From the NCBI GenBank assembly GCA_905178155.1, contig CAJINV010000001.1, positions 15,624,142-15,688,141 of the forward strand: a DNA stretch of 64,000 nucleotides, written 5' to 3'. Of this stretch, positions 349-60,600 are shown piece after piece. Numbering within the stretch: position 1 is the first letter of the stretch; every line of letters begins with the position of its first letter. The position numbers were made by a program, and so were the translations under genes. The stretch comes from Amoebophrya sp. A120. Its lineage: Eukaryota; Protista; Dinoflagellata. The notes beneath the pieces were generated by a model. That model saw nothing but the letters and a program-made list of their open reading frames with translations. It was not told the origin of the DNA and did not search any database.

Positions 349-3052
349 ATGTCATCAAACCCCCCTGATGAACATGCTCCGCGCTCCACGGACGGGGCAA
401 ACGCTTCGCCCGTAGGTAGAAGTAGTCGTGCGCCGGATGATGTCGCACAACACTCGTTGCCAACTTTGCTAGAAAAAGAGGAGCCAGCCGCGGCGAAAGG
501 ATCTGCGACCGGTATGGCCGCGCAGAGGAAGATTTCCGGCACTTTGGAAATCGCACTAGAAGGTAACGACTGCAACCACTTCTCGGCGGCTACCATTACG
601 GGCGGTTGGTTGGAGGCGACCGATGGTACTCGTTTTGCTCTTTCGCCCGGTGGGAAAATTTCGTCTGTGATCGTGCCGTCTGAAAACGACAAGACGACTC
701 GTGTAGTCGGTCTGGCCACGAGCCAGAAGGAAAAAGAGAACGAACCCGAGCCCACCCCACCAGAGATCATAGCGAGTGTGAACGAGAACAAACTCCTCCT
801 GGGCGACGAAAACAAGAACTTCTACCCGGACGAGGATGAGGACAAGAAGAAGGATCACGAGAAAAAGAACAGCCGGGAGTTGGAGGGCCTGTTATTCGAA
901 GACTTCGACGGGCTGAGCTCAATCGGGAAGAATTCCCCCGGAGATTGTGAGTTGGAGCTGGATGGGGCGCCAGAATTCGAGGAAAGCGAAAAGGTGGAAG
1001 AGAACAACAAGGTCAAGGAAATGCATACAGTGCGCGACGAGGCGAAGACGAAGCAGATGAACGACCGGCACCAGAAGACCCCGGCCGCGGAGGTTGGAGC
1101 ACAGGGAGCGGCCGAGTTGCTACCCTTCCCGAAGAAGCGCGATTTTTTCGCCGGCGAACTGTTAGGGCAGCGCCTGCCCGACCCGACGTTCGCGGCGATC
1201 GACTTCCACGCAAATCCGCCATCTCCGCCGGACACGCGCGAGCGGAGCTGCTTCGATCAGAAGGCCGAAGACGAAAGAGAGGACATCTTCCGGGCGGTCT
1301 GCAACGCGGTCGAGCGGCGCAACGGAATGGGTATGGACCCACGGCAGGGCCTCGGCCCACTGCGCGAGCGGTCAGCGAGCGCAGTGATCACGGGGCGCGA
1401 TGCGTACACACGGACGGAGTGGGATATCCTTTGCCAAGATGCCGCGCGCTCTTCTTCTTGTTCTTTTCTTTCGAAGCGCAGTCAGGTGGTCACGATGGAA
1501 AAACAAAAAGCGCAACGATCGAGCCGCAAGAAATGAAGTGCAAAACTTGCAACGCTCGCTGTTAGAAACCACAAAAATAAACTGCGTGGCCAAATCTGAA
1601 ACGAAAACAAAGAATCACTTTTGAAGAACGAGCAGAAGTGCGCGCGGGTGTTTTTGCACCTCATACAGAAAGATGGACTGCTTTACGAATGGCTGGAGGA
1701 TTATCCACAAAAAAAAAGCCATCCCCATCCAAACTGTAGACTATGTTGCTTTTTGTGCATGTTTCGCGCCACTACTAGTGGTGCGAAACATGCACAGAGT
1801 CCAGGAACTTGCCATGCAAAAAACTCTTTGATGGGCATGGCTCTTTTCTTCTGGATAAGTGTCAGAAAAAAAAGCCGAAGGGCGGCTATTCCCGCCCGAG
1901 AGTCCCAAAGTGCTTCAGTCCGTTCATAAGCAAGTTCGGCGATGAGTACGTATCTAGTGCAAAGGTATCGCACTCGTAGCAATTGCAGTTTGTTATGAAC
2001 AACGACAAGCGTTTTTTGTTTTTCTAAGGTCAATCAGCACAACAAGTACAAATTTGAAATTTCATTTTTCATGCAGAGAAAAAAACTGTCATGCAATTCA
2101 TAAAACTCGCGCGATGCTTTTGCAATTCATAGAACTTCGACTTGGATGACTCGGAGGATTTATTGCACCTACAGTCCGAGAACGACTCAGAGCATTCGCA
2201 GCTGGATTTGGCCGACAAGAACAGGTATTGTGTTAAATTTCGCATGCAGAAGCTGTTGTAGTTGAAGATAGAAACTAAGCGCAAACTAACCGTCGATGTG
2301 TATTGACAATCATGCTTGAGGGACATCCTCAACACTTATACAGGTGTATCAAAACCTGCTCAATATGGTCGCGTGGTGAAGCGGAAAGTGATACTTTAGC
2401 ACACAATACCTCCGGGGGCATCATGGCAGGTGGTGCGAGTGTCCATGCGGAAATGAAGAAGGCTCGTGTACCGGGATCCGAGTTTGCCTTTTCGTCCAAG
2501 GACATCTTCACTGACCAGCAAAATGGAAATACAACCACGGAGACAAAAGCTAAAATATCGCCCTCTTCCCTGCGCCACAACATTCTGCCGAGCGTTGAGG
2601 TTGACACGGGTGATCTTGAGATGGAGGACAAGTTTTCTACCAACTCGACGCGCGGCCACCGAAATAACCCGATCAACGCTGCCTCATCTTCATCTACCTC
2701 CACTTCTACTGCGGTAAATTTCCTGAACAAAAAAGCAACGCCAGCTGCTGGTGCGGATTCCGACCCTTCTTCTTCCGTGGACGACAGTTGGCTCGACGAG
2801 AATGGGGAGAAGATGTCTGTGGCGGCGTACTGGTACAAACGAAGTTCGAAGAAGGTGGCAGCCCGCGCACAGGCAAAATTGGCGCAAAAGAAATCGGGTA
2901 GCGGCGAGGACAATGAGAAGAGCGAGCTGGTGGAGGATCAGAAAGTCGAGGAGGACAGCGAGTGCGAGGAAGAGGAGGAAAACGACGGTGGAAGCAAGAT
3001 CGAGAACTGCTCTGGCGAGGAGAAAGGCGAGGATCAAGACTCTGATTTATAG
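349..3052 (+). CDS. Multi-exon acidic/low-complexity hypothetical protein (exons ~349-1530, 1669-1698, 1860-1947, 2134-2224, 2344-3052; may extend 3')
   Basis: ORFs 265-1536 and 2303-3052 join into one open frame after removing three TIR-bounded introns and one GT-AG intron (2225-2343). No recognisable domain. Confidence 0.55.
1533..1665 (+). mobile_element. Degenerate TIR introner (non-canonical intron)
   Basis: Left end atgaagtgcaaaac vs reverse complement of right end tatgaggtgcaaaaac; flanks aagaa/cagaa. Removing 138 nt eliminates two in-frame TGA. Confidence 0.55.
1702..1857 (+). mobile_element. TIR introner
   Basis: tatccacaaaaaaaaagccatccccatccaaa vs rc tatccagaagaaaagagccatgcccatcaaa; flanks aggat/agtgt. 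Element+5 removal gives ...WLE-CQKKKPK. Confidence 0.7.
1951..2131 (+). mobile_element. TIR introner (same TIR type as 8656-8895)
   Basis: tatctagtgcaaaggtatcgc vs rc tatgaattgcaaaagcatcgc; flanks gtacg/gaact; internal tgtcatgc. Element+5 removal keeps the frame. Confidence 0.6.
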
Positions 3053-5560: not shown

Positions 5561-6052
5561 ATGCCACCGTCTCTTCCCCGTCCTGGTCGTCTTGAGGAGC
5601 AGAACGACTTTGCTGGAGATCCGCACTGCTCCACCACAAAAATTATCGTTCCAGTGAATTTCACGGGCACTACAACGTCCGTGCTGGGAACGGTAGGCGA
5701 AACGACCGGAGAAGAAGTAGTTGCGACCACACCGCAAGATGATGAACCTCGCGTTTTCACAATCAAGACCGGTTCTCTGAAGACACTTGGTGGCGGTTCC
5801 ATAAGTGTGGTCGGCGGAACGATAAATGTGACGAATATTCCTACGGCTCCTGCGAGCCTGGTCCCGGCGAGCGTTGATACGGCGAAAGACGCGGGTGCAG
5901 AAAAGGTGATCCCGAGTGCGGCTATGGGGGAGTTGGCCGCGACGGCCGCGAGCGAAAATCGCGAAACGCTTGAGAGGCTGAATCTTAACAAGGTCTGTTC
6001 CAAGGCACCAGAGGTACAAGTGGATACAATTATTTCACAGGATTTCGTGTGA
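5561..6052 (+). CDS. Thr/Ala-rich hypothetical exon or ORF
   Basis: 163-aa ORF with coding-like composition; boundaries unresolved. Confidence 0.3.
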   Translation: MPPSLPRPGRLEEQNDFAGDPHCSTTKIIVPVNFTGTTTSVLGTVGETTGEEVVATTPQDDEPRVFTIKTGSLKTLGGGSISVVGGTINVTNIPTAPASLVPASVDTAKDAGAEKVIPSAAMGELAATAASENRETLERLNLNKVCSKAPEVQVDTIISQDFV

Positions 6053-6242
6053 GGAGTCAGTGTCTTGCTCTTGACTCTAGGTGATGGACTGTCGATTCTT
6101 GATGCTGGGCTGTCAACGACGATGCCGTGCTTTTCACGACACTCCTGAACGCTGGTGAGTGCCAGTTTTTCGTATTCATTGAATCAATCTCATTGTAGTA
6201 TGTAAGGTAGCTTGTTCCACCGAAGAACGTGACCATGAACAC

Positions 6243-7399
6243 ATGCAAACTCAGGAGCTCCTGTTGGTCCCGGACAAGGAACCTGCTAATATGGCTACCA
6301 GTTTAATCTCGCCGAAGCAGGCCCGCAAGGAGGACGCAAAGGCTGCACTGAAAGAAATAGAAAGTGAAGATGACCAAGAACCAGGGCAGCACCTGTACCA
6401 GACGAGGGAAGAACGAAAGGGTGAACTCTTGTTGCTCGTGGACGATACCGACGCAAACACTTTCACTTCGTCTTTGAATGCAGCATCGACGTCGCACCAC
6501 CAGCTCCGAGTACAAGATCAAGGCGAGAAAGTAGAGGGCGAGCCAGTAGAAGAAGCACCATCTCCATCGTCTGCCGCCGTCGACCTCGATGTGAGCGTGA
6601 GCATGTCCGCGAAGAACGAGCTGTACAATTTTTTGAAAACCTGTGCAGCCGATAGGAAACCTGACATCTCCGACGGCGATATTCATGCCGCATCTTCATC
6701 TACTGCAAAATCTAGAAACGAAAGCGCTGCCGGCCCGGCCGAGCAGCACGCCACCGGCGCCGCAGTGGAAAGCGACAGAATGGAAACTAACGCACTTGAT
6801 GCAGAGGATGAGGCAGAAAATGAAGACGATCCTGAGCTGTATCACACAAAAAAATGTCTAGCGTGCAAGCATATTATTAATATTATCTTCAGTGTGCATT
6901 ATTTACAATGCAAAAATAAAGGTAAGCTTAAACACACAGTCTCCGTCACAGAGTCCATGCATAGCTGAAACAGGCTGCTACGGCGAGCGAGCTCCTGGAG
7001 ACAACGAGATCTCTTTGTCTACTTATTCTTCACCGCTCATCTATGCAAGTTAAAAAGCCCAAAGCTTAAACTGCACGAGCGCTTTTCTGTGTGATAATGT
7101 CCTGAAACAGTTGCAAGAGATGGACGCACTTCTCCCGGACAATATTTTCGACGAGAATGGAGACGAGGACGACGCGGAAGCAGCTGCGCATTATGTATAC
7201 GCATTTTACGGTTTACGCACTGCAAAAACGTCGAGGTCTGGAAGAGTGGTCCGGAAATTTGTCATGCATTTTGATTTTTTGACCACTAAAACGGGCGGTG
7301 TTTCTCCAGACCTTGGTGGTGACCGGTTGAGACACCGATCGCCAGCTACTTACAAGCAGCAACATAGATAGTTCGTTAAACAGTCACTCGCTCGCCTGA
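6243..7399 (+). CDS. Acidic hypothetical protein, multi-exon, 3' end unresolved
   Basis: ORF 6243-6968 joins ORF 7111- in frame after removing the TIR element 6840-7096 plus 5 nt. Confidence 0.4.
6840..7096 (+). mobile_element. TIR introner
   Basis: tatcacacaaaaaaatgtctagcgtgca vs rc tatcacacagaaaagcgctcgtgca; flanks agctg/atgtc. Removing 262 nt restores the frame. Confidence 0.7.
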
Positions 7400-7577
7400 A
7401 GAAGCGAACACACGATTGATTTTTTGGACAACGCAATCTTCTGGGCTCTGTTTGAAATTTATGCGGAGGGGGCTATCATGACTGACAAGTTGTACGTTTG
7501 CACGTGTCAAGAATGGGCCCCCGGAACAATTACTGGCTTGCCGGGCAGTCAATTTAACTTTACGCATCATATTAAGT

Positions 7578-10412
7578 TTGCAGCACGTTTCCAGACCCAG
7601 GCATGTTGGCAATGCATACGCGGCGGCCGCATTCTTGGATCCTTCCTCGCCGGTCGATCTCAAGGCTGGTGCACATATTCCGGTAGAAGAGGGGATGGAC
7701 GATGAACACGATATCAAGAAATTGAACGACGCTGATGGTGATGTCCAGCATGAAGTAGAAAGCGATGTGCTAGGTGCGATGGAGCGGACGGAAACGGAGA
7801 CCATGGGAAAGCAAGCTGAACAAGATGAAGGGACAAGCAAAACCAATGCCAAACGCCCGCGATCCCGATCGCGATCCAAACAAAACGAAAACCAAAAAGG
7901 AGGTAAGCCCATGGCCATGTGAATGCGGCTCAACTTTTTTTCAACGTGAATGTTTCTAGTTGCTCTTGCGACGTAGACTTTATGAGTGCGCATGTAAATG
8001 TTGGTGTTGGGTACCTAAATAGATGTACTAACACCGCTGTTGTTTATTTTGCGACAGATGAGGACGGTAAGCTTCACCTTTTCCTTTCTAAACCAAAAAC
8101 CAACAATACCAAACCAATAATTATCTTGCACTGATGAAGGAGAAATAAAATCTCCAGATGAAGTTCCTGTGACTGACTCTTTGCTTCTGCTCACCGCTCG
8201 CGAGAACGAAGACGTGGACACCTTCATGACGGAAGATGTTGACGCAGATGCACACCAACATGAGCCTGCGACAAAGAGCCAGAAAAAGGCTGTGGAGGAG
8301 GTGGACAAGGTCAAGGATAGGGAGTTCGAACGTAGTCACGAGAGCAACAGAGCTTCCTTCTACCCCTTGCTGCGCGCGACCTTTTTCAGAGGACCCAGAC
8401 TGCGTCTGGAGCGGATCGAGGCAAGGACGCATCTCGTGAACTACACGGCGGCGGGAAAGTACAAGACGTCGGAATGGCTCGGGCAGAAGATCAAGGACGA
8501 GCTTCGCTTTACCTGCGCGGAGCTCAGCGCCGAAAAGCAGTTAACGGCGGGCGTCCCGCAGTTTTTTGTCACCGGGGAAATGGCTTTGATCGACAAGATC
8601 GTAGAAGAAGCAAACGAGCAAATCTTCCAAAAGGCAGTGGCCGCATTGGAAGTGATACCCAGTGCAAAAGCATCGCACTCGTTCAAGAGGTCGCTGTGGT
8701 CCTATCGTATAGTTACTAATTGCGGCGAACTTCCTTGGAAATTAATGAGTAAGAGAGCACAAGTTTGCGTGTTGACGTCACAGATTGCGAAATAAGTAGT
8801 AGCTGGTGACAAGTTAGCATGAGCAGGCATCGGGCATGCGTACGATTGACTATCTTCAATTCCTACGAGTGCGATGGATAGTTTTGCACTGGATAAAACG
8901 TCACAAGCAAGAACATCACAGCTGCAGGATTGCCGGAAGAAAAGCAACAGGAGGAACTGGCAAGTTTCTTCTCTGCGATACCGATCACCAAAGCACCAAA
9001 TAAGAGCAAAGGGAACTCTCACTCTGCAAACTACGATTTCGAGTACGGCACCTACCTGATCGCGGCTTTCCAGCAGGATCGTCGCGATCACGAATCGGGA
9101 AGTACTGCGGTCGGAGATTCATCACAGGAGGTCGAGTTTCTTTCGGACAACTTCCAATCTGCATTCGACGGCGGTCGCCTGGCCGCAAAGATAAACGCAG
9201 CTGAAATATGCGATGTAAAAGCCCGTGCCGGTGCCCCCCTTCACCATGGATTTGCATATGTTTCATCTAACAATAACAAACTCGTTCTAAATTTGCGAAT
9301 GTGCAACGTATCAATCACTTGCTTCCCGTGTAGTTATCGTGCTCGTGGTTGATGGCCTTGGTCACATGGTAAAGGAAATGTGATTGTGGCTCCCGCCGAG
9401 GCAGGTTTTCATTGCACACGAATCTGCGAAGAACGATGCTGGAGAAAAAATAACCAACCCGGTGAATAAACAGAACAGCATACCAAAAAAAATTCTGCGC
9501 GTTCCCACTCCCATGAAGAAGATGAAGATACAAGGCAAGTCCAGTGCTAGTTCTTCTTCGACGTGTAACACTAGCAGGAACAGCTCCTCGTCGTCGGCGA
9601 CGTCTAAGAAAGCCGACAAGATGAAGAAAAGCAAAACCAATCAAGCCAAGGCTTCATCCGCAGCTAGCAAGAAAACTGCCGCTGTCTTTGGACTGAAGAG
9701 CAACGACGCCGATTTGAGTGAGAAAGTGACGAACACCACGGCCACCGCCGTATCTGGGCAGGGCTCGTCGTCCTTGTTGATCAACAAGAATCCGACTTCT
9801 ACTGACACCAACGCCACTACCCTGAAAGGACTAGAAGTTTCTGGACATGAGAAGAACACATCGACATCCGAAGGTGCAGCTGGTGTCCTCGCAGGAGAAC
9901 AGGGAGGACAAGAGCGTGAAGGACTGGCTGCTGGTCAAGGTAAACCAGAAGCTTTGAGGTTTTACCCCTCGATCCCAATGAAAATCATTAAGGCCAAAAT
10001 GGGGCGCGGACGGCCGAAGAAGACTGATATTGCTGGCGCAGCTGCAACATCTTCTACTAGTTCTAGCTCCAAGACAACACTAAAGCCGGCTTCCAAGTCT
10101 TCATCGTCCTCAGCAAATAACTCCAAGAGCGCGCCGATGGGTGTGCAGCAGGGAGGGGAGGTGGAAATAAAATCAGGAGGCGCTACGTCTTCTTCTGGCT
10201 CCGGCTCCGGGTCCAGCAGCAGGAAGGTTGTCACGTCTAGTACGGTTTTCGAGGATCAACAAAAATCCGGTTCCTCGTGGTCTTCAAGTGCTGCGTCCTC
10301 CTCCTTCGACGCGAGAGTGGCCAAGGTTGCTGCAGCATCTTCCACCGGTTGTACCGGTAAACATTACAACTCGAATAAGGACAGTTGTTCCACCAGTTGG
10401 ATGAAGAAGTAG
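7578..10412 (+). CDS. Multi-exon hypothetical protein(s) with a Ser/Lys-rich C-terminal exon containing an AT-hook-like GRGRPKK
   Basis: Co-oriented ORFs 7578-7922, 8169-8795, 8930-9352 and 9384-10412. The 8169 and 8930 ORFs join across the introner at 8656-8895; other junctions are unresolved. Confidence 0.4.
8656..8895 (+). mobile_element. TIR introner
   Basis: tacccagtgcaaaagcatcgcactcg vs rc tatccagtgcaaaactatccatcgcactcg; flanks agtga/aaacg. Removing 245 nt gives ALE-NVTSKN in frame. Confidence 0.7.
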
Positions 10413-10676: not shown

Positions 10677-10981
10677 TATTACAGTGAAAAGTGCCCCCAC
10701 CCCTCAAATTGCAAAAATTTGTGATGCGAAGTTTCCAAATGAAACCTTTTTGTCATGCATGAAAGGAGTATAAATCTTTCTGATGCAGAGTCTAGGCGTG
10801 TATCGCATCGCTTGCATGACAAGCGCCGCTCTTGCTGGGGTCTTTTGCAATACAAATTTTCGCTATTCACGATTGGAAATCTGTGATGCTGATAGGTGCA
10901 AGAGGGCGAATGTTTCATTTGGAAAGGTTTGCAATACAAATGCTTTCAAGTTCGGGGGTGGGGGCATTTTTCATTCTGATA
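10677..10981. mobile_element. Intergenic/UTR MITE of the introner family (TIR type shared with 17428-17747)
   Basis: tattacagtgaaaagtgcccccaccc vs rc tatcagaatgaaaaatgcccccaccc; flanks tttca/tttcc; several tgtcatgc/tgtgatgc motifs. Confidence 0.8.
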
Positions 10982-14302: not shown

Positions 14303-15193
14303 ATGTTGTTCTACCAGTGGTTCCAGACGCTGGCTCAGAAAAAGGCGGACGTGACAGTGGAGTTGAAGAACGACCTGCAAATACAGGGCCAGATCTATCC
14401 TATGTAAAAACGTCCCCACCCCAGAGTTGTCATGCGAATCAGCATGGTAAAAATGCTTCTCATGCGAAGCCCCATGAGAGGCATTTTGTAGTCCTATTTC
14501 GCAATTTGTCATGCTCCAATCGGCATGACGTGCTAGATCTGTAATGCTGCTGAACTAGCTAATAAACAGGATTACATTATGAGGCCAAACTTGTCATGCA
14601 GAACTCCCAAAACTTGGGGATTTGTGTTGCAGACTTCCCATCTTGACCATGGTGTGCTGGGAATGTTTTTACATATCATAAGATCGTAGCGGTGGACCAG
14701 TTTTTGAACATCCGTTTGAACTATGAACTGCAAATATGTTTGGGTCTGGAAGATTGCAACTTGTCATGGTAAATCTGAAGCATGCAAAAATCTGTGTTGC
14801 ATGAGTGCCAAAAGCTGTCCAGCACTTCGACCAAGTTCGAACGGAGTTTCTCATGCAGAATAGGCATGGCAGAGACCTCGCAGAGTCTGTCATGCTAAGT
14901 CCCGCATTCCAGACTTCATGGGTCATGGAAAATCCGCATGACAAGTCTACACTCTTCCAGGAGACCCAGACATTTTTGCACTTGATAGGAACCAGGTCAC
15001 CTGCAGCGACCCCGACAAGTTTCCGTACCTGCTCAGCTTGAAGAACTGCTTCATCCGCGGGTCAACGTTGCGGTACGTCCATCTGAAGAAGGACGACGTC
15101 GACGAACAGCAACTCCAGGAAGCAACTATGAAGGAAGCCACGGAGAAAAAAATGGAACTTCAGGCAGAAATGCAAAAGGCTCTGCGGCAGTGA
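14303..15193 (+). CDS. LSM2: U6 snRNP Sm-like protein LSm2; three exons (~14303-14392, 14683-14717, 14989-15193), absent from the ORF track
   Basis: Spliced translation MLFYQWFQTLAQKKADVTVELKNDLQIQGQIVAVDQFLNIRLNQVTCSDPDKFPYLLSLKNCFIRGSTLRYVHL... matches the LSm2 signature (MLFY, VELKNDL, VDQ.LNI.L, KNCFIRGS). Confidence 0.93.
14396..14680 (+). mobile_element. TIR introner, LSm2 intron 1
   Basis: tatcctatgtaaaaacgtcccca vs rc tatgatatgtaaaaacattccca; perfect AGATC duplication; no GT donor available. Confidence 0.9.
14722..14987 (+). mobile_element. TIR introner, LSm2 intron 2
   Basis: tatgaactgcaaatatgtttgggtct vs rc tatcaagtgcaaaaatgtctgggtct; flanks tgaac/ggaac; GA...AG intron 14718-14988. 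Confidence 0.9.
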
Positions 15194-16117: not shown

Positions 16118-19100
16118 ATGGTTCAACATCTGCTAGATGAAACGAAATCAAGTGGCTCCGGCGACGCTGCTGCGCCAGCAGCTCCAATTCCTGTGGAAAA
16201 GCAGTCCAACGACGAAAACGATGGCGAGGCCAAGCAGAAGGAGCACGGCACAGGCGGAGGAGGCAATGAAAATCTCGGAAGAGATGGAGACCAAGACTCT
16301 TCAAAGGAAAGCCCGAACGGAGACAAGAGCGGAACAGAGGAGCGGGCGAGGACAAACTCGAACATACTAGACAACATCGACGTCGACGCAAACCGTGATG
16401 TCGTGCTGAACTCTTTCTCTTCAACAAGCCACTGTCATGGCCATGGGGACAACTTACCCCCAACTTCAGCGGTCAACTCTCCTGAGCTTGCTGCGCCAGA
16501 TGAGCAGCTAGAGAAGGATGAAGTAAATGAAGAGGCTGCACCAACAGGAAGAGTTACACTCGACAGCACAAAGAAAAAGAATACAGCCGTGAAATCGCCG
16601 CTCGGCAGTGCCGCATCAAGGACGAGTGGTGTTTTCACGGCAGATGATCTATTGGACGTAGCGGAGGGCAGCCTGAAAAGGATCCGGCTCCCCGAGCCCT
16701 TCGAAACGGAACCGGGACAGGATGCGTACGACGAAATTTTCGACGCGCTACGGTGGGAGGCCTTGGACTTAGAAGACTTGACCAAACAGGACGCTGGACC
16801 GAACAACAAGACGAAAACAGATATCAAAAGCGGCGCGTCATCATCAAGCTCGTCAAGCTCGAGCTCTTCATCATCAAACGCAAATAATTCCGCACAAAAA
16901 TCGAAGACGACCCTCCAAAACAAGCCGCACTTGGGTGAGGTCTTGCGCACCGCAACGCTTGTGGGTTACGAAACTAAGACATGGAAGAAAATGAACGACT
17001 TTTTCAAGATGGTGGAGGAGGGAAGCAAGGATTTGACGAAGGAAATCACCGGAAACTCGAAGAACATGAGCACCGGGAATCGCTACCCGTGGTCGCGGTC
17101 CGCCTGGCGGCACGAAGTCCTGGTCGAAAAACTCAACTTCAAGGAGTACAGAACTGCGGTCGTTTTGTACGACTCCGACACCATGACCATCAAATCCTGC
17201 TTCCTGCCGCACCTTCCGAATGACCGCGCAGATTGGATGTTCTCGTCGTCGACCACGACGTCCACGACCCATTCATCGTCGTTTGCGTTTCCCAGCACAT
17301 CGAAGATGATGTTGAACAGCACCACAAGCTCATCTTCATCTTCTTCTTCTTTGCTCGCCAGCGCCGAACCGTTTTCCTACGGGCGCGGGATATCCGTACC
17401 GAACTCGGACAAACCCGGGGGTTACCATATCAAAGTGAAAAAAGTCCCACCCCATATCGGAAACGGAAGATGCGCGAATTTGTGATGCTGTATTTGAGTA
17501 CACAAATCAACTTGTATTGCTAGAAGGCCAAGCGACAAAGCTGCGGCCTAAATTGCAGGCAATCTGTCATGCTGTTTCCCACTTCCAGTTGCCTCCTGTC
17601 ATCCTGGAGCTGCGAGGCTTTCCCACGCTAGACAGCACTACAGTCCGCATCTCTTGCCTTCTAGCATCACAAAGCTGTTTTGTGACCACAAATCTGCATC
17701 ACAGATATCCGCTTTGATATGGGGAGGGGGCATTTTTCATTGTAATATACCAGATCATTGATCAGGCTTTAGGGATGAGTGGCTGGATTGGCGGACGGGC
17801 GACGAAAGCTTCTTGCGGGGGAATGCACATGTTCGGCTCGCACGTGGTGCCACCTTACTCGCCAGAAATGAACCCTGGGACGTTGCAAAGGTATGGGTCC
17901 CGGAAAACGAAGCCGGGCAACGACGAGCAGGACGAGGCTGGTATAATAAAAAAGTTTGTTTGCTTTTTGTGACTGTTCTTGTGGTAAACCTAAACGGAAA
18001 TAAGTAGGGAAAGAAATGGTAATGGTCGCTCAGGTATCGATCCTAGATCCGGCGATTTCTACACAGAGGACTTTGCATTGGCAGTACCGAAACGCGACGT
18101 AGTTGACCGCGTCGTTGTACTGAACCCATTTATCCTGATCCACCTCATTCAGATCGATATTAAGGAATGTCAATGTTTCTAAGTGTCATCGATTAAATTA
18201 GTTTCTGAGTGATTTAGATTTTCTGTATCCCAAAAAGGTCCTCGCGCTGACGATGAAGAAAACAAGATGCCCGGAAGAGAACATGGAAGCAACAAGGTAA
18301 GCGAGAAAGAAATCGCCGGAACCACGAAGACCGCTTCCTCAGGACAACAAGTAGAAGCGCAAAGTCAAAAGGGCTACTGGCTTCCGAAAATCCAGGCCGT
18401 GGACGATATTGTGTTTGATTTTGCCCGCCACTACGCGCACGCCGAGCGGCTAGTAGTTCCCGCGGCCGCGCACAGTCGGCAGCGCATCATGGAGGCGCTG
18501 GACCCTGCGTCAGAGTGGGGGATCATTCCTGGGCAGCCCCATTCGGTTTGCAACGGTGCGCACATCTGCAGCAAGTCGCTGCAGTACGTCGTGATGGTCC
18601 ACGCGGATTCCACAACCGACGGCACGCTGGAAGCCATCTACTTTTATAGGCCAAAAAAAAAGGCGCGAAGCGGTCTCTACGGCGAGTTCCCGACCGGCCA
18701 CAAGTGGATGTTTCTGGCGGGTGCCGTCTTCGACATGTCCATGGCCCGGGGGTCGGGGAGCTTCGTCTACGTGCACTGCTCGAGACCGGACCCAGTCTAC
18801 CATGGGACGCTGCCAACGTTTACCAGGGTGGCCGAAGAGCAGGAAAACACCGCGCACGATGGTACAGCTACTGCTTTACTTCATCCGTAGCTGTGTTTCT
18901 TTTTCCATTTTGATGCTGTTCCACTAAAAATCTTCTTCATCAATCATGATTCTGCTGGGCGGTCCGACGTCTTCTCTTCGCTCCTCCGAAGAAGTGCAAA
19001 TATGTTCGTTGAGTTGTGCATGCTGGATAAGGATATGGATTTAATATCAGGTATGGGATCTGCCTTTCTCGTGCAGGATAATGTGGCCAGGTTTCTCGCG

Positions 19101-22100
19101 GACGAGGGGAATCGCGGGGCCGGAATGATCGCGAATATCAAGGCGGAAAGCGCCAGGCCTATGATTGTCCGGCCGGGGTTCAAGGCCGTCCGTGGCTTCG
19201 GGGGGTCGCGAGAACAAACACGGACTCGGGCGCTGCTCAAGCGGTGCCAGGAGCTTGCGGGTCGCAAACCGCAAATGCAGCGCGAACAGGGAAACATCAA
19301 GGAGGCGCTCGCTAACTCTACCACTACCTCCACCACCATTTTCGGAAAAAAGAAAAAAAAGAAAGATAAAGATGAGACGAAGGACAGCAAAAAGGCTATC
19401 AAGGCGCTTCTGCAAAGGCACAAGACCGGTCAAGCCGACAAAATAAAGCGAGACAGTCTGTTGCGAAAAAGCAAAAACATTCTTGCGGCGAAGGGCAAAA
19501 AGACGTTGAAGTTCAAGTCCAAGAAAGCGCGACAGCTGGCACAAAAAAAGAAGAGCATGGAGTTTAAAAACGCTCGCAAAGCGTTGATAAACGCGGGCGC
19601 ATACGAATACAAGGTGGGCACGCTAGCACAAGTACTTCTGGCACAGTTGGAGGCCGGGGAGATGAAAGAGAAGGTCGCGCAGCCACAAATTAACCAGGAG
19701 GGCGAGGAGGTGAAGGGGAAGGTCATTGCTGCGGGTCAAGCCCACAGCAACCTTGTTACACTGAACGAGATGATGGAAGGCGGCGATGAGAGTATGAAGA
19801 AAGCCTCCTCATCTAGCAGCTCATCTAGTTCTTCCTCTAGTGCAACTGTAACTACTGGCGGCGCTGTTCTTGCACCTCCCGCACCAGATGAAGATGTTGC
19901 AAATATGGAAGCCGCAAGCCAGAACACTCTGTCTAAAACAACGCTCATCACTTCTACGGCACAAGCTGAAGCTGTACCACATCAACAAAGCCAGAAGAAC
20001 GACAAAGCCGAAGCTTCGTCTTCGACATCGTCAGCGACCACATCAGTAGTAGAACAGTCAGAACCAGAAGCGCAGGAGAAACTACCAGACACCCCTGCTA
20101 GCGTAGAAATCAGCCTAGCCAGTTTGCGGACTGTGAATCTTGAACATAACGTGATGGCGGAACCCGGCCCGACCGGAAGCTTTGAAATTCGTTTGGAGGA
20201 CTTTGCGACTTGCGAGAAAACCGGGCAGCCGTTGTTCGCCTTCAACAAAATCATGGAGCTTTTGCAAGCCAATCTCGACGCCCGTGTGCAGAAGCGCGGC
20301 CACTACAACGCGATCCAGCGGACTGCCGGCATCTTGCGCAAAGCGCATATCGAAAAGCAGTTTTCTTGTGCCAAAATTCAATCTGGAACCGTTCAGCCGC
20401 TGCGCGTCGACCGCGTCTCCGGGGCGGTCATTGTGGGCCACGAGGCAGTTGCGAAGTTGGCGCGGACAAAAAACAAAAGCGTGACAGAGTTTCTGAACGA
20501 GAGGCAGTACAAGCAGCACAGGAGAGAGACGCGCGAACTCGCCCGGCTGCTGCAACGACTCAGAAAGCAGCCTGGAGAAAATAGCGCCGGAGAAACAAGC
20601 TCAGAGGAGAGCAAGGTAGAAGACGACGACGACGTTGACGTCAACAACGACAAAAAAGATCAAGAGCGAGATGATGAAGATGATAATAACGCGTCTGCCG
20701 GAGCCGAAAGTCGTCGTGCAAGGCAACTTGTCAAAGAGCGGAAAAAGGAAGCTGCAGGTGCAGGAGCGCCGAAGAAATACAAGAAAAAGAAGAAGAACAA
20801 GAAGAGGACTCCTTCGAGGTCACGTACGCCGCGCCGCCGCCGAGCCTCGAACTACGACGATGACAATATCCGGCTAGAAGTCATCACGAATGCGAAAGGC
20901 CGCTTTTTTGTGTACGAAGTACGGGGGCGGGACGGGGACGAGCGCGAGCGGATTGCGCTGCGCAGGGGCAACCTATCGCGAGAAAAAACTGTTTCACTGT
21001 GAACTTGTGATGCATAGAACGGAACGCAAATGAAATGTGTTTGTCTTGCTACACATGCAAGACATTGGATTTTTAGCTGTGCTTTCCCTTTAGGAAGCAC
21101 GCATGCCAAGTTTTCTTTGTCATGTGTAACAAACTTGTGATGCAAAACTTGCAAAATCATCACAGTGAAACAGTTTTTTCGTGGGATACAACCTGACGGA
21201 CGAGGGCGCTCCGCCCGCGTCGGGCGAGGCGCTGCGACAGTGGAAGATAGCGGAATGCAAACGGCTACAGGAGCGCAGAAAGCAGGGCATCGTCGAGACT
21301 CCGCCGAAGAGGTTGGGGCGGCATGAGAATCCGCAGGAAAGGGATCAGGAAAAACTGGCGCGGCCACCGGTCCAAAGGGTGTACTGGAACGAGGACCGAT
21401 TCTACGTGTACGACGAGAAATTCGTTGAAAAAACGCCGGTTGCCAGCGGAAAGAAAAAGAAGAAGGACAAGAAGGAACGATCTTCAAGCGTCCGCATCGA
21501 GCGTACGCTCGTTCGAAAGGGCAAGGAAGGCGATTCCGACGCTCCTCCGAGGCCCTCGCCGCGCGGCAAAGAAGTGGCGAAGAACCCGGTCGGCGATCAA
21601 GAAAAGGCACAAGAAGAAGACCCGAAACAGGCTGTTGAAGATGGTGTAGTTGAAGAAGAAGATGCCGATACTAGTGCCAAAGATCCCCTCAAAAAAAACC
21701 AGAAAGCGCGGCAGCAAAATCAAAAGGACGATTTGCATCTGCCGGATGATGGCGAGCAGCCAGAAGTTGAGGGAAAGGCAAAACCTTTGCGGCTGGTCTT
21801 CAAAAAGCTTCCGCCGAGGAAGAAGAAAGAGAATGCAGAAACGGATGCAGCTGCCAAGAAAAACAACGACGCTCCTGCACCTGCTTCAGCATCTTCTTCT
21901 ATCGAAGAACAAGTAGAAGACGCTGTGGCCGCTGGACCACGAAAGGAGATCTCGGAGTCTGATCCGAAACCGAATTGCAGCCCCGCAGCAGATCTGTCTT
22001 CCAGTGTAAAAGACGACGACAAGCATCAACAAGACCGTCCTGCCATACATGATGCGGCGAAAAAGCGACACAAGCCCGCCGAGGAGGTTGCAGTGGTCGA

Positions 22101-49970: not shown

Positions 49971-50016
49971 CTTCCGCTGAAGGGAACTGGGAATCAAACC
50001 GCAGGAGAAGGGTGGG

Positions 50017-50619: not shown

Positions 50620-50745
50620 AGAAAACAGAAGTGTGCAGCAACTCGCGCTAAGTCAGCACGCTGCGGGAGTTTCCGAATGTCTGTGCCCAATCTCTTAGGA
50701 TCTCTCGAAGAAAAACTCGTCGCCGTGGTTCTTTGCATTTACTTT
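50620..50745. repeat. Split direct repeat A1 (126 bp)
   Basis: Identical to 50017-50142 except one g/a near the terminus. Confidence 0.95.
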
Positions 50746-51832: not shown

Positions 51833-52043
51833 GCAATGCGCATGCTCTCACAATCGCAAATCGAAATCAATGGATGCCAGCGCGTCCAAACAAAGTGCGA
51901 TATTAAATGTTCCTCTGATTTCAATCATTATGTTCATTTGTTTGGTTTTGTTTCTCATCCTCTTCTTCCAGTTGCGCTAAAAAAGAGCATTCGCTAGATG
52001 TCGTGTGGGTGTGTGGGTCTGGGTGAATATCATTTTTTTTTCG

Positions 52044-55000
52044 TCATATGTCGGCTAAGTTTAGTTCCTGATCCTGTTCGGAAGCGGAACAAAGAAGTCT
52101 TCTTTTTTTAAGTGGCAAATAGTTGTAATTGAGTCGATGCAGCAGCCTCTTCTTGAATCGTACAAAACCAAGTTCCTCACCCGTCAAGGGACAGAATGAT
52201 CCTTCGGACAGAAAGTCAATGCCAACGGTCGCACTGCCGCAATTACTGTTCGAGGTACTGTGATGTGGTCCAGGCCCTCTTCTTCCTTCCACATCCAAAA
52301 AGAAGGGACCCTTGCGTTTCTGGAATTGCAAGTCCGAAACTCCCGCGGCTTGGAGAAATTGCGTTATGTTGTCCGTTTCGCCTCCATTTTCATAGTCAAG
52401 TGAAGAGGATGTGGATGATCTATCTTTGGAAAATTCCGTTCTGGTGTGTGTCATCTTCCTCGTCTTGTTTTCCAGTTGCCGCTGTCGTGTTTTGTGCTGT
52501 CTCGAGACGGGCGAGTCATCATCATCTTCATCCATTTCGATTTCCTCAAAAGTGTCCTCGTCGTCTTTTACAGCATCGAATTCTGACTCGCCCGCCATTT
52601 CAATTTCTTCTCCAGTTTCGTCCACAGAATTTTTGTAATTGTTCCGCAACTGACAAGCAGCGCCGGCGTACTTTTCGAGGAGTACTTATGGAACTGTCAG
52701 GATCGAAATCAACAAAATCGAAAAATTTGCAATGCATAAAATGTAGGGCATGTGTGGCCTGTGTTGGGGCGCCGGCAAATGAGACCGATTGCAAGCCTCT
52801 TTAGGGGAAGAATTCCTGCTGCCAGAGTAGCATGACAGGAGCAGCCTTCTTTGCCCAAACAGCGTGAGAGACTGGATTTGGGTGCTCCCGAAATTTGTCA
52901 TGCATACCCGACTGCGCCACTTCAAAAACCTTTGCACCGTCGCCGCAAGCAGCTTCGGACGCAGGAGATCCGAAATTTGTCATGCGCCACTTGGAAATTG
53001 AGGCTCCAACTGGTGTCGATTTTATGCATCACAAATTTTTCGACTTTGTCAATTTCGATTCTGACACCTCCATAGTACTAGGACTGCCCGCGGCATCTGC
53101 CGCATCTGGTCTCCGTGCTCCAGCGTGAGCGCAAACAAAGTGCGGGCGAGCTGAGAGCTGGGCCGACTCCGCGCAAGCTTTTCATCTGCGGTCTGCGCAA
53201 TGTAAGTGAGCAGGGCTTCCCGAAGGAACTGCGTGCTCAAAATCTTCTCCGCGCCAAACATGCTCGTCAGTGTCATCGCATCCAGCAGATTCAGCAACTG
53301 TCTGCTTGTGAATCCAAACAGGAGGGTAGCTCTTTCTGCCTGGTTCGCTTTGCCTTTCGTCGTCCGTCTGAGTTCTGTGTGGTCGGCCTCGGCGGTTGTC
53401 TTTACTGACGAGGACCGTGGACTAGTACTTGTAGTGTCGCTGGCATGTTGTGGACGTAGATTTGCAGTGGATGCAGACGATGTAAGTGTGCCCGAAAGCA
53501 GGTGGGGTACGAGCTCGTCGTAAAACAACGACCGCAGCTGCGTCTTGGCAGGACGAGGCGGGTAATCCCGCCCTCCTGGAAGACCATATCCATAGCGCTG
53601 CTCCGCATGCTCTTTCACTCCTGGTTCGACCTGCTCCTGCCTATACGTGAAGCCAAAGTCTCCCTGGCATCTGTTGAGCACTTTTTCGCGCACCCATTCC
53701 CGAAGCTCGCCTGTTTGCGTTTGCACATTCAGAACACCTCGCCCAAGCGGGCGATCGCGCTGAAAAGTTGCAGAAGCTTGCTTGTCATGATCCCCTATCT
53801 GCAAGATGTCGGAGGATGTGCTGGTGGGTGAGCCGTAGCCATGGAATGGCATCGCCTTGGTGACTGATTTATGTGAAGAAGGATAATCATACTGAAGGGG
53901 TATATGCCCAACCCGTGCACAAGCCGCAGCGAAAACACTCAAATGCAGCGGCGAGTGGTGGTCTAGTCGCGCTAAAATGCTTGCTCCAAGGCGATCCCAG
54001 ACGTATTCGGTAGAAAAGCAGGCCCATAACAGAAAAAAGAGTACTTATTTATGTAGTGCGTTTTTTGGCGCGACAGATCGAGCATTTATTCGTGACACAA
54101 TTTTACTATTTTTCTGGTACTACAGTTGTGCTTTTCTCGAGGATATCACGTCCTGTCCGCGGAGACCCATCCGCCCAAACGCGTACGCCAAGAGGATGAC
54201 AGACTTGTCACCCATTTTCGTGCGCTGTCGGAATTTCTTTTTCCAACACGGCTGTTGTCCCTTCGATATTCCATCTGCATCGTCCTGCAGGGACAAATCG
54301 GGACCAGAAAAATCGTGGAAGGGGTGCGGGATGCTTTTCTGCACGCGCTCCATGGCAAAACGCATCAGATACACGTGCCGGATTCGCAGTTTAGCGAAAC
54401 TGTACAACACTAGCGCCAGCGACTGGTCGGACAGTTTCCGTTCCCGCTTGATGCACAGAACAGCGAGGGTTTGCACCAACGAACGATGAAAGTGCTCGAA
54501 CTTGGCGAGCGTGACCGCCAAGCTCGCGATGTGACGGTCCGTGACCCAATAGGCGGGTTTCCAATTCTCGTTCAGCCGCTTGCGCTGGAGTTTCAGGCGT
54601 GCCGCTTCCAGGCGCGCCTCGGTTTTCACGACGGATTCTTTCGGCTTGTTTTTTCTATTTCTTGGTCGGGAAAAAGAAGAGGAAGAAGATGTGTCGCGGG
54701 GAGTTCCTCGAACTGTGCAAGTACTAGAAGAAGCATCTTTATTTTGCAGAGGCTCTGGGGTGGGAGGAAGACTATCTTCAACATTGCGATCCGCAGGAGC
54801 AAAAAGTTCCTCTACTCCAGCACTGAGTGCATGTGCAACTCCAACTACATCATCGGCTTCATGCGGCCGTATCACGTTGTTCTCACCACCCGCCGCAATT
54901 TTCAAGGACGTACCTGGCAAGGACATCATCTCCTGTTCGGCGCCTTCGGTCGGAGTGTCTTCTCCTTGGCCCTTCGTCTTTGTCAAAAGCTCAGCTTCGT

Positions 55001-57107
55001 CTTTCTTTATTTTCGTCCGCCTACGTCTTCGTCCAGCACGAAGAGAAATCGGATTTCGTTTCTTGGGCCGCAGCATAGTTTTGTCCAGGTAATTTAGCGT
55101 CGGCGCCAAGATTTGCCTCGGGTAAAAGCCAAACAGCGCCATTTCGTGCAGGAAGATGATCATGGACTGCGGTGCCATGAGGTGCATCTTCTCGGAATAC
55201 ACCTGGCAGACCAGCCGCAGGGTCCGTGCCCACATGAAGTCTTCGCTTTTCCGGCGGTCGCAGCACTTCAGCCGCCTTTTGCGGAGCAGGTAGACAATCC
55301 AGCACAAATCGTACTCGTTCCAGCTGCACGCCGAGCGCTGCATGTGGCGGAACATGCGGTAGAAGAACTTTTCCTTCACTCGCGCGTTGCACTTCGCCAT
55401 GCAGTACAACACCTATGAGAGAGCACAACTTCTCCTCCCCCACCCCCTCATTTGTATTGCATGAACAGCAATACAAACGCCAGCCCTTCTGGAGCCTGTG
55501 CATGACTATGACAAGTTCACCGGTAGAAGGTAGTACTGTTTGGCCTTCCGAAATTTGTCATGCAAACAGTGCCACAGGGCAGCAAATGGATTTGCGGTTT
55601 TGCATGACAATTGAGGGGGAGGGAGAGTTGTCGTTGTGCACTTTCATAACACCAGGCAAATCTGGGAGTGGGACAAGCTGGAGGTCCGGGTGCTCGGCAG
55701 CTGCAACACCGATTTCGACCCCACTTGGTGGCGGATCTGCTGTTTGCCGAAAACGGCCTTCTCCACCGCGCGCGCAACGACATTCCAAGCCGTGTTGCTG
55801 CGGTACTGCAAGCGCTGAAAGCTGGTTGCCGTGGACACCAGTTGCGCGGGGGACATCTTCTCCAAACTTTCCACCACCTCCTCCCGCAACTTCTGAAACC
55901 GCCGGTCCAGCTGGACCTCCCGCCCGTGCGCCGACATCGTGGACGAGGAGTAAAGCAGGTCCGCGGACGAATTTTGTACTCCGGCCACTTCGGAAGGAGA
56001 AGAACTAGAGGCGGTTCCATAGTTGTTCTCAAGGCCAGGAGAGCTTGATGTTGTCCTTGTTTCCGGCAGCATGATCCTTCGTCGCCTTTTTGCGTTGTGC
56101 AGCGCGACCGAGAGTTCCTGCAAAAGGTACACCTTCGTGGACACTTTTTCGTTGCTGGTGGTCCCGGTCGCGGCTCCCATCTGCTTCAGGACGTGCTGCA
56201 GCTTTTGCTCCGTGGTGCGGTCCTGAACCGGCGCGCGCTCCTCAAAGCACAAGGCGCCTCCAAAGTCGGAGGATTTGTACACTTGGGACGGGAAATCTTC
56301 AAAACCGGCAACATCTTCATCGGTGCTACTCTGTTGAGTGGTGACAGAAGCGGTTCTACTATCGCTGAAATGAGAACTAGCATGCTCGTCCACTATCAGT
56401 TTTATTCCGTCGTCATCATCTTGAACCTCATGTTCGCAAGGCACTTCGGAATTTTTGCCTCGGCGGGCGAAAGCGGCATCGCTTGTCGTGGTCATTCTGT
56501 GCGAGCCGGTAGTCACAGTCGGTCGCGTTCTACTCCTGCCGGTGCACCAGCTATCCTCGGTACTCCTGGCAGCTGAAAGCTTCCCTGAAATTGCGAAGCT
56601 GTTTCTACCAGAAAAAACAGCTTCCGCTTCGTGGTTTTCACCTTCGTCGAAAGCTTCGCTGTCGCTGTGTCGTTCACCAACATGCTCATTCCCCCTGCTG
56701 TTGAGAAAATCCGACAGGGTTGATAGTGAAGCTGAGTGCGGGTTTTCATGTTGACCACTCCGTTCCACAGCCGAAAGCGCCGCATCGCTGTCCGCGGCGA
56801 GAGCCGCTGGTTGTGAGGAAGAAGTACTAAACGTCCTTCTTCCTGCAGCACCACGGAGTGTTGAATTCGAAGTGTCATGCCCGCAACAGCTCCTGGAGGT
56901 TCCAGATGAAGAAGTAGCGCCGGAAGGAACTCCGTGAGATTGTGCCTGTTTGGCAAAACCGAGAGTCCAATGATGGTGGCTCAAAAGGGTCTGCGTCAAG
57001 GCTCTTGCTCCCGCGGGCGCCAGTACAGTTGAAGAGGAACTGGGTGTGGTCGTAACCAGCACCGACCGCGAAGTAGAACTTGAACTAGCACATGCAGCAC
57101 GCTGCAT
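52044..57107 (-). CDS. Large helical-repeat (HPR/OPR/FASTK-like) putative organellar RNA-binding protein; four exons separated by three introners
   Basis: Repeats such as MSPAQLVSTATSFQRL, LSHSQICLVLYCMAK, LSDQSLALVLYSFAKL, MGDKSVILLAYAFGRM; S/R/A-rich N-terminus. ORFs 55644-57107, 54120-55412, 53049-53942 and 52044-52649 join in frame. Confidence 0.65.
52687..53074 (-). mobile_element. TIR introner with ~56-bp TIRs
   Basis: tatggaactgtcaggatcgaaatcaacaaaatcgaaaaatttg vs rc tatggaggtgtcagaatcgaaattgacaaagtcgaaaaatttg; perfect GTACT duplication. Confidence 0.92.
54004..54145 (-). mobile_element. TIR introner
   Basis: tattcggtagaaaagca vs rc tatcctcgagaaaagca; flanks agacg/tcacg. Removing 147 nt gives GQDVWDRLG. 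Confidence 0.75.
55414..55648 (-). mobile_element. TIR introner that forms a canonical GT-AG intron
   Basis: tatgagagagcacaac vs rc tatgaaagtgcacaac; perfect ACACC duplication; on - strand ctg|gtgttatg...ctcatag|gtg. Confidence 0.88.
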
Positions 57108-57667: not shown

Positions 57668-60600
57668 TCAAAGCATGTAGTCCCCGAATGCACCGTCGGA
57701 AGGGGCCGCGCTAGACTTCGATGCCATTGTAAAGCCTGCGTTCTTGCTCTCACTGCGGGTTTCGGATTTTTTGATTTTCGGTGGAGGGGCCCTAGGGTTT
57801 TTCGATTTCGACACAACTCGAGTTGCACCTACAGGGCCAGCAGTGACCTCGATGTCGTCGGACATCAGCATCGCGCCCCGCAGGGCTGACACTCCACTCT
57901 TGTCCGACCGGTTTTCCCTCCTACTGGTGTGACCAAAAAGCGTGTCGGCCGCAGATGCAGTACCGGGTCCTCCTGCGCGTGCGCCGCCTTTGGAGGACGC
58001 ATAGTTGTTAACAACGCCCCCACGAGGACCTTTGCCTTTCGCACGGCTACCGTCCATTACCCGTAACCGATCCGGTGCAGCAGGGTGCTTCTTTGACATT
58101 CGTGCGCCCCACATCCACTCCTGCGTACTGTAGGTCAAAAACAACTCCTCGACGGTTGCGGCCTGCGGGAAGCCCGTCACGTAGGAAAGCTGCGGCACCA
58201 AATGCGTGCGGTCCGGCTGCTCCGCGGAGAACGTCGCAGCTTGAAATTTCCGGATATGGAAGCGTCAGCTTGGAAATCGTCGAAATGGAAATGAGTGATC
58301 CTGATCTACAGTGAAGAAGCAGAAAGTCGAAGATGCGTCTTACTGTTCTTGAGCGCAAAGACGTACGCTCCTGTCATGCATTTCTGCCGTCATTTCCTTG
58401 ACCTAGACCTCCACCTTAATCAAGCCGGCAGTCGGTCTCTCATCTCTCTTGCAGTCCTTGCAAAACAAGAAAAATGTGCCTTCTACTCGAACTCGATTTT
58501 ACGCAGGTACAAATCAATTAAGTAATCATTTCCACTTTGCAAATTTCAAACCGGTCACTGCCATACTGGAACGACAGCACATAATTGTTCGTGTACACCA
58601 CACCGCCCTGCGTCCCGCAGCAGCATCCAAGAATTTTCTCCACGACTCCCGGACCTCCACGACGGGACGTTGTATTTTTGTTGTTCGTGGTGTTCCCAGT
58701 AGACCCAAACGTACGACCACTTCCTGGTCCCATCTTTGCCGTTGAGAGTGCCTCTGACCAGAGTTCGTGGTGGATAGCGACCGGCACGCCAATGCCCCTG
58801 CGCAGTGGGCGCGCGATGTCGGCGGCCACCAAAGCCTGGCCCCAAATCCCCAGCTCGTTCTCGCTGCTGACTGCGAGCGCGTGCGTCGGAGATACCGAAA
58901 GGTGCCGAACGGGCGGGAAAATACTCGCAGAATCCTTGTTCGCGAGCATTGTTCTTGTGTCGTCCGTGATTGTCGCCGCGTGAAACCCGTTCGCTTTCAG
59001 TATTTGCGTCGGCCTCGCCGCCGCGCGCACGTGGAACCCGAGGCCGAGCTGGCCTAGGGTTGCCGAGCCCCAGGTGTAGACGTCCCCGTACACGGAGAGC
59101 AGCATACCGAACGCACCGGCGAGAAAGATGCGGTGCATTTCGGGAAGATGCGCGCCACGGAAGAACCGAGGTTTGCAGGCGAGCTCGAGGTTCATTTTTT
59201 CTGGCAATGCTGTGGGCTCCGGCGGTGCGCCGCCAAGAACACAAGCAACGCCGTCACCGAAGACGAAGCCACTTCCGTCTCTGTGTGCGGCGATGGAAAT
59301 GCAGCGGCTGCTGGAGGCGGAGGCAATGTCCAGCGGAATGGGCTCCTTCACGGTGGACTTGGTTGCAACGCCGAGCTGGCCGTGGGAGTTACTGCCCCAA
59401 GTGAAGACCGCACCCGTGTCCAGCCGTACGACGCAGTGGTCGGTGCCACAACACACCTCAACCGGGGATCCACCGCGCAAAGAACCGATAAACCGCAGCG
59501 GATCCCAATCAATAGATTTCGGGCCGAATTGCAGGACCATCGACGTCGGCCCTTCGTCCAGGGTCGTCGGGCTGGGGTTTGAGTTAGGGTTCTTGCTGCT
59601 ATCATTTTTCGATTGCGGCGCGACAGTGACGAAACTTCTCTCTTTATGTGAAGAAGTATTTTGTTGAACCCCATCGGCTTTATTTCGTGGCTTGTCCCTG
59701 ATGTAGTCGCACAGAAGCAGCGAACGTCTATCCCCCAGCGCTATCGCTTGTGGTAGAATGAGATTGCTTTCTGACGAAAAGTGCACTTTGTCCAGTCCGC
59801 TGCGCAAGCCAGCGAGCCGACTGCTCTCTTTGCCCTGAAATCCGAGCGCCAGCACCTTGCCGATCAGAATGCCGCCCGCATTTTTGCTCTCGTCCATGGG
59901 GGCGGCCAGCGGGCCGGGGACAAAATCTTTCGTTTCGTCAGCCGTACCGTCTGCGGGGAACGTAAACGCGCTGCCTTCCTCTGCCATCCGCTCCGTTTGC
60001 TTTAGCCACCACTTGCGCCAGTGGCGCTGCACGACACTGGTACTGGACCCCGTTTTTTTGAACCACCGGCGCCAAATCAGCATGCGCAGCAGGCACTGCA
60101 GCACGAACGCCGCTGCGCGCAGCCGCATGTACCCTTTGCGCGCAAGATAGGAACGAAACGCGGCCTGGATCTTCGCCGCGCGCCGATCGTAAAAAAAATG
60201 TTTCCGGATCTTCGATCTCTTCTCCTCTAGTGCCACCAATTCCGTGGCAAACGCTTGGCGAGCGCGGTGCCCACGGTACAGGGCCTGAATCTTCGTTGCG
60301 AACGGCGCCGCGCGCGCCCAGAATGTCTTCACTCGGAGAAGCAGTAGTCGCATGCCGGGAACGAGTGCTTGGTAGCGTCGCCGATCGCGGTACCCACGCC
60401 AGTACCTCTGAATGACAAAGGCGCAGCCGGAGTACTGCTGGATGATGCTCACCACATACAGCGCCCGGGCAGCCAAAAACTGCTTCGCCTTCGCCTGCAC
60501 CGTGCGCGCTGCGAACATGTACAGGACCTGAAAGCGGACGCGGTCCGCCTGCCGCATGGCGAACAACCGCCTCACGTGGGTCTGGATTTTCAGCGTCGCC

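Follow-up and report, generated by a model that had tools for sequence, protein, structure and literature searches.

In the dinoflagellate Amoebophrya sp. A120, the removal of inverted-repeat introns from transcripts appears to follow a single code, in which the stem formed by the terminal inverted repeats (TIRs) of an inserted element, together with a fixed distance, sets the two cuts: 1 nt before the 5' end of the element and 4 nt after its 3' end. We give this reading a probability of about 0.9. It is drawn from a stretch of 64,000 nucleotides (contig CAJINV010000001.1 of assembly GCA_905178155.1, positions 15,624,142 to 15,688,141 of the forward strand), called the window below, in which 16 such elements were found (Table 1). 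The elements are the introner elements already published for this organism in PMC7789003, and the link to them drawn in the original prediction holds; what this analysis adds is the cut code and the flat base composition at the junctions. More than 60% of A120 introns are concerned, and PMC7789003 describes where they are cut as variable or unknown. The 1+4 rule was not found in the published texts searched; that search did not extend to subscription papers or to figures 3 and S19-S23 of PMC7789003, which may hold part of it. No cut register is given in the accessible portions of the reviews PMC11282704 and PMC11453091, nor is there anything on it in those of PMC12005148 and PMC12787238.

Scans of the window gave elements of 142 to 405 bp with inverted TAT...ATA ends, a revision of the 13 intragenic elements of 130 to 390 bp first predicted. 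At a TIR pair score of at least 30 the window holds 10 distinct pairs versus one (score 30) across five shuffles, and at a score of at least 33 it holds 13 versus none in one shuffle. Duplexes between the first and last 30 nt reach z scores of -2.0 to -9.3 in 16 of 16 elements, and the same test on five canonical introns (three of them with coordinates shifted by 1 nt) gave +0.2 to +1.1. The TAT/ATA ends hold in general, with two elements starting in TAC (7214 and 8656, named here by their first plus-strand position) where one had been predicted, and one, 9207, ending in ACA. The elements are flanked, as anticipated, by perfect or decayed 5-bp duplications: the flanking 5-mers match at five of five positions in five elements, at four in three, and at one to three in the remaining eight. 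A further predicted element, said to lack its first T at 1533, was a mis-call. The annotated A120 protein P0001, encoded in the window at 100% identity, exits the genome at 1422 (E359) and re-enters at 1672, which corresponds to an element at 1425-1665 plus 5 nt, and the fold, in which 1435-1475 pairs with 1590-1655, gives the same placement. Within this element, at 1533-1560, lies an internal TIR-like end with a four-of-five flank match, which may be an older insertion whose 5' site shifted upstream.

Removal of the elements can be followed in transcript-like assembled contigs of one study (X1 and X3, whose RNA status was assumed) and compared with a DNA-like run, X5. Skip length equals the element plus 5 nt at all six element joints among those listed, and the segments are not retained, as the original prediction had proposed; X5 contigs read straight through the elements. 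Two GT-AG introns are missing from the same transcript record as five TIR introns. The further claim that the reading frame is restored in each case does not extend to element 10677, which lies downstream of an open reading frame (ORF) ending at 10412, within the 3' untranslated region (UTR), and has no frame to restore. Care must be taken with frame as evidence, since it sets the removed length only modulo 3; the figure of +5 comes from the RNA contigs and from homologues. Transcript contigs cover none of 1400-2066 and leave most of 52-57 kb uncovered, and the annotated protein and homologues back nine further elements beyond the six RNA-contig joints. For instance, the frame of LSM2 is restored once 14396 and 14722 are removed, and the 13-residue gap from first to last exon agrees with solved LSm2, fitting +5 twice. 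LSM2, which encodes a spliceosomal protein and lies at 14303-15192, itself hosts two TIR introns 41 nt apart. The homologue P0002, the sole match in a protein search with the 52-57 kb gene, aligns gap-free over the junctions of 52687, 54004 and 55414. At 17428, the X3 record 7 pieces stop at 17422 and have a 192-nt middle exon, implying a skip of 325. At 20974, pieces of both X1 and X3 stop at 20968, where the duplication has its left edge, and the frame stays open only with +5 modulo 3; a protein search with the gene around this element gave no match.

How the 5 nt are divided can be expressed as k, the number of bases retained from the upstream duplication copy in the direction of transcription, so that k=4 corresponds to an intron of 1 nt, the element and 4 nt. 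No other value is shared by the six RNA joints (probability by chance 0.0017 if k is named, 0.01 if any common k counts), nor by all nine informative junctions when the three set by P0001 are included (9.5e-5 by chance). The proposal that a stem and a fixed distance set the splice sites is supported, one register fitting nine of nine junctions, with the refinement that 1 nt of the +5 falls to the 5' side and 4 nt to the 3' side. In the case of 58255, whose host gene is on the minus strand, the plus-strand register is ruled out and the mirror-image 1+4 fits. At 54004, a W stands opposite an F of P0002 if k is 4 or less, and an R if k=5, which disfavours k=5. When 53 decayed elements of a second assembly were put to a coding-likelihood test that is neutral as to register, the maximum was again at k=4, though weak (P=0.03 versus the complement, 0.12 versus k=1), with k=3 and k=4 tied on the minus strand.

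Base preferences at the junctions were read from 238 elements with a score of at least 33 (13 in the window and 225 in the second-assembly loci), of which 202 (12 and 190) had a strand call; the 36 without one were dropped. Window elements 8656, 9207 and 54004 fall under the score cut-off, 10677 is without a strand call, and row L037 was dropped because it overlaps L036. Under the 1+4 register the first intron base is G in 69, C in 52, A in 46 and T in 35, and positions +1, -2 and -1 show no base preference; GT-AG ends occur in four of the 202. This flatness is independent of the assumed register because all five duplication positions look flat. By contrast with these free positions, two bases that pair with each other, U(+2) and the one at -5, hardly vary, and they alone: 201 of 202 elements have T at +2, the lone exception being a likely mis-call, and at -5 there is A in 197 and, in the other 5, a G that keeps a U.G wobble pair. 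The two inner pairs next to this closing pair tolerate mismatches. Independence from GT-AG, as originally claimed, therefore stands for the flat positions, with the qualifications that the ends are not wholly sequence-free, that 8656 is cut as AT-AC and that 55414 has an equivalent GT-AG register available; at 17428 and 20974, as predicted, GT-AG, GC-AG or AT-AC ends arise in none of six registers. Among known intron classes, the junctions show neither a G-G or A-C pair of first and last intron base nor the GT/GC donor and AG acceptor of U2-type introns, and the sole AT-AC among the 16 window elements does not make a U12-type set; minor snRNAs (small nuclear RNAs) are reported absent in A120. 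The 16 window elements hinted at a branch A fixed at -5 or -7, an idea that failed on the 202.

The duplications of 59 older elements have diverged by 0.29 per site, and a terminal change is present in only 6 of these elements, versus an expected share of 0.62, a contrast that is biased upward since detection needed near-intact ends. From this conservation, not from mutation, we infer that selection maintains the stem and its closing pair and that the paired stem probably causes the cut.

Table 1. TIR elements and canonical control introns of the window, with the intron given by the 1+4 rule (terminal dinucleotides in brackets) and the support for each; k is defined in the text.
Feature	Position	Strand	Intron under 1+4 (ends)	Support
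TIR element, 241 bp	1425..1665	+	1424-1669 (AT-GA)	P0001, k=4,5; long terminal stem
TIR element, 156 bp	1702..1857	+	1701-1861 (TT-TG)	P0001, k=4,5
TIR element, 181 bp	1951..2131	+	1950-2135 (GT-AC)	P0001, k=2-4
TIR element, 257 bp	6840..7096	+	6839-7100 (GT-GT)	RNA-contig joint 6837/7100, skip 262, slide 1, in X1 and X3; k=3,4
TIR element, 405 bp, TAC start	7214..7618	+	7213-7622 (TT-CG)	RNA-contig joint 7212/7623, skip 410, slide 0; k=4 only
TIR element, 240 bp, TAC start	8656..8895	+	8655-8899 (AT-AC)	RNA-contig joint 8654/8900, skip 245, slide 0; k=4 only
Decayed TIR element, 212 bp, ACA end	9207..9418	+	9206-9422 (AT-AA)	RNA-contig joint 9202/9420, skip 217, slide 3; k=1-4; discovered via this joint
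High-copy TIR element, 305 bp, 3' UTR	10677..10981	+	10676-10985 (AT-TC)	RNA-contig joint 10671/10982, skip 310, slide 4; k=0-4
High-copy TIR element, 285 bp, LSM2	14396..14680	+	14395-14684 (CT-AT)	Frame and LSm2 gap
High-copy TIR element, 266 bp, LSM2	14722..14987	+	14721-14991 (CT-AA)	Frame and LSm2 gap
High-copy TIR element, 320 bp	17428..17747	+	17427-17751 (AT-CC)	Record coordinates, frame
High-copy TIR element, 215 bp	20974..21188	+	20973-21192 (CT-AC)	Contig ends, frame
TIR element, 388 bp	52687..53074	-	52683-53075 (CT-TA)	Homologue P0002 ungapped; no RNA joint
Decayed TIR element, 142 bp	54004..54145	-	54000-54146 (AT-TC)	Homologue P0002 ungapped
TIR element, 235 bp	55414..55648	-	55410-55649 (TT-TG)	Homologue P0002 ungapped
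TIR element, 311 bp, IQ/RCC1 protein gene	58255..58565	-	58251-58566 (GT-CG)	X1 joint 58249/58566, skip 316, slide 1, one contig, depth 8; k=4-5
Canonical GT-AG control intron	6014..6254	+		Shares transcript with five TIR introns; begins GTA
Canonical GT-AG control intron	7903..8157			Begins GTA
Canonical GT-AG control intron	17941..18237			Begins GTA
Canonical GT-AG control intron	18862..19050			Begins GTA
Canonical GT-AG control intron	2225..2343			Begins GTA

The elements have the traits of MITEs (miniature inverted-repeat transposable elements): they are short (109-618 bp, median 258), carry TIRs and a fixed 5-bp target-site duplication, exist in many copies and have no coding capacity. 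The 22-nt end of the 14722 family is present at 38 loci in one other assembly, where, of 35 paired copies, 20 are flanked by an exact 5-bp duplication and duplications of 3, 4 or 6-9 bp do not occur. X5 depth is 43-53 on unique DNA versus 5,000-52,000 in bins with young elements. The loci, selected via one element, total 237 kb and contain 225 copies, or about 1 per kb; one family sits in exons in both orientations (19 and 9), and intron lengths and phases are unconstrained. The motif TG[TC][CG]ATGC has 27 of its 31 hits inside elements, which make up 6% of the window, in either orientation, and likely represents subterminal transposase-binding repeats; a decay of this internal repeat with age was not borne out (2.7, 2.4 and 2.2 per element). 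The 5-bp duplication, the subterminal repeats and the use of both orientations suggest insertion by a DNA transposase. No transposase-coding or ORF-bearing long TIR element was found in the window and the 237 kb of loci. At locus L027, two elements lie 12 nt apart (3654-3667), which under 1+4 leaves a 7-nt exon. At 20974-21188, a DNA-like contig of single-copy depth links an element end to an element start via exactly 5 nt, which we read as tandem copies, with a zero-length exon under 1+4; the junction is identical to that expected of a full-length circle. An end-to-start (circle) joint was not found in the contig comparison that yielded the 58255 joint, a result that carries no information.

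These observations can be assembled into a possible life cycle. A DNA transposase would insert non-autonomous copies and make the 5-bp duplication; in the pre-mRNA the inverted ends would pair into a stem; and the closing pair would set the cuts, one at 1 nt before it and the other at 4 nt after it, so that the original sequence returns for insertions of either orientation, UTRs included. Since the 1+4 total matches the length of the duplication and the two ends are alike, the insertion would be erased from the message whichever way round it lies. The rule would also explain how a transposon can fill exons at about 1 copy per kb with little cost. As for the machine, we place even odds on a remodelled spliceosome, which would read U(+2)A(+3) as the relic of a GUA donor and locate the acceptor by distance, not by AG. 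The 1-nt offset puts UA at +2/+3, and the canonical introns here begin GTA in five of five supported cases. The top motifs in Table S4 of PMC7789003 are N-T.. in A120 (9/9) and TT.. in A25 (9/9). U2, U4, U5 and U6 and most spliceosomal proteins are reported in A120, an adapted spliceosome is reported to process TIR-derived non-canonical introns in Fritillaria, and elsewhere acceptors are known that lie a set distance away from the branch point (PMC2483917).

Several points weigh against a fixed cut made by a spliceosome. The transcript evidence consists of assembled contigs of one study, with RNA status guessed and majority forms only, the sole minus-strand RNA joint (58255) depends on one contig, and of the raw-read runs X9 and X11 gave no reads and X10 gave nine, all in element repeats. 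For the 190 second-assembly loci the register is assumed, not read, and AG ends amount to 29% in the published annotation versus 5% here. With respect to the machine, splicing requires a pair between first and last intron base (PMC13326754, available sections), and no such covariation is seen: +1 and -1 are independent (P=0.10), with G/G in 19 versus 22.2 expected. G at +1 (69/202) does not significantly exceed its share at the remaining duplication positions (29%, P=0.14), AG ends number 11 of 202 versus 17.7 expected, and GT-AG is found in 0 of 65 older elements. There is no fixed branch A (-5 varies in 5/202, -7 in 2/202) and no branch-like consensus. Finally, the stem spans both splice regions and would need unwinding.

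The same facts lend themselves to a separate, non-spliceosomal activity that obeys the same 1+4 stem rule through a staggered cut at the base of the hairpin and ligation of the exons, an account to which we grant rather less than an even chance. It would leave a net 3-nt 3' overhang on the intron, it fits the complete freedom of +1, -2 and -1 without covariation, drift toward GT-AG or a fixed branch A, and it fits an outermost pair that is always U-A or U.G above inner pairs that tolerate mismatches. Moreover, U1 snRNA is reported not found in A120. An activity of this kind is suspected for the non-conventional introns of Euglena: spacers of 3 nt and 5-6 nt surround a paired motif with the same net overhang (PMC12501133), and the introns are released as circles without lariats (PMC11282704). 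However, this activity leaves the offset that puts UA at the GUA position (one register of six) unexplained, no candidate enzyme is known and no search for one was made, and the CDG..CHG motif and exon purine requirement of Euglena are not seen here. In its broadest form, which we hold tentatively, A120 would splice mRNA by a second pathway that is blind to sequence, takes its distances from the base of an RNA hairpin, is tuned to the 5-bp duplication, is convergent with the Euglena code and is possibly shared with A25; that A25 has the same geometry is suggested by the wording of the available sections of PMC7789003.

Both accounts take the register as fixed. Alternatively, cuts might vary within the duplication or follow the orientation of the element, with only the majority form visible. 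The Fig. 3 legend in PMC7789003 does call the sites variable, annotated intron ends are mixed, k=4 alone is pinned at two junctions only, and polarity depends on one RNA joint and one homologue residue; the RNA joints as a set do not separate a register in transcript direction from one that follows element orientation, and the coding-likelihood tie on the minus strand points the same way. Yet k=4 is contained in nine of nine informative junctions, and the mixed annotated ends can be reproduced by aligner sliding. In the part of PMC12130899 available, six large families (1,817 introns; 6 of 19/58 rows) have GT 27%, AT 18%, AG 29% and AC 18%; choosing the most canonical-looking register in 137 perfect duplications gives GT 30, AT 19, AG 41 and AC 20%. 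A fixed cut can thus be hidden by sliding, because the canonical-looking choice mimics the published ends, within our own set. We consider a variable register improbable. Still further down stands the idea that the elements are not spliced from RNA and that the skipping contigs are empty-site alleles or products of DNA excision. It draws on the guessed RNA status of X1 and X3, but the skipping contigs also lack GT-AG introns and most intergenic DNA, each joined form combines two diverged copies of the duplication as a 4+1 chimera, and X5 contigs retain the elements. This explanation is largely refuted and very hard to credit.

Comparison with known systems places the fixed 1+4 register in context. 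The introner elements of PMC7789003 share with those here TAT + 7 nt + A-run ends, a hairpin, MITE-like structure without transposase, and an example with a 5-bp direct repeat. Conversely, the published introner features are all found in the window: TAT, seven looser bases and an A-run, a border direct repeat, non-GT-AG removal and repetition in the genome. That paper gives repeats of 3-5 nt and a splice position that is variable or unknown, whereas a constant 5 bp and a single 1+4 register are found here. The A120 families of PMC12130899 are likewise classed for the most part as TIR DNA elements, their family unknown and their length about 250-350 bp, but its automated calls show 2-5 bp duplications, mixed ends and no single register (19/58 A120 rows). 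The non-conventional introns of Euglena (PMC12501133) resemble those here in lacking GT-AG, in their paired terminal motif and fixed spacers, in having canonical introns alongside, in a net 2-3 nt 3' overhang and in a suspected MITE origin. Their code, 5'-N3CDG..CHGN5-6|R, differs from the N1-TAT..ATA-N4 of A120, where the Euglena signature is not seen, and the spacers are 3 and 5-6 versus 1 and 4. Euglena also needs an exon purine and has reported circles. In Fritillaria borealis (PMC13326754, PMC11282704), non-GT-AG introns derived from TIRs and target-site duplications also occur beside canonical ones; their ends prefer AG-AC and AG-AT, with U2AF paralogues implicated, whereas +1, -2 and -1 are flat here.

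A single rule of the form N|UA..stem..UA-NNNN| predicts the position of the branch or circle junction, the bases and the machine to probe. If the machine is the spliceosome, it would be one blind to +1, -2 and -1; if it is separate, it would be a second splicing system outside the euglenids.

A few other features of the window can be mentioned. A TAC...GTA inverted repeat at 30282-30390 lies within a predicted GT-AG intron (about 30270-30444) and may be due to chance. No Rfam families were found in the window. Split direct repeats, 98-99% identical, occur at 42487-42695 / 50140-50348 and at 50017-50142 / 50620-50745, and bracket three long minus-strand ORFs without a Pfam match (42487-50745), a layout that we take to be reminiscent of split-direct-repeat (Ngaro/PAT-type) retroelements. 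They are adjoined by an AT-rich island at 50750-51850 (GC content 0.39 in the 50001-52000 bin). The DEAH-box helicase gene at 31828-34653 (HA2, OB fold) is a single uninterrupted ORF that contains no element.

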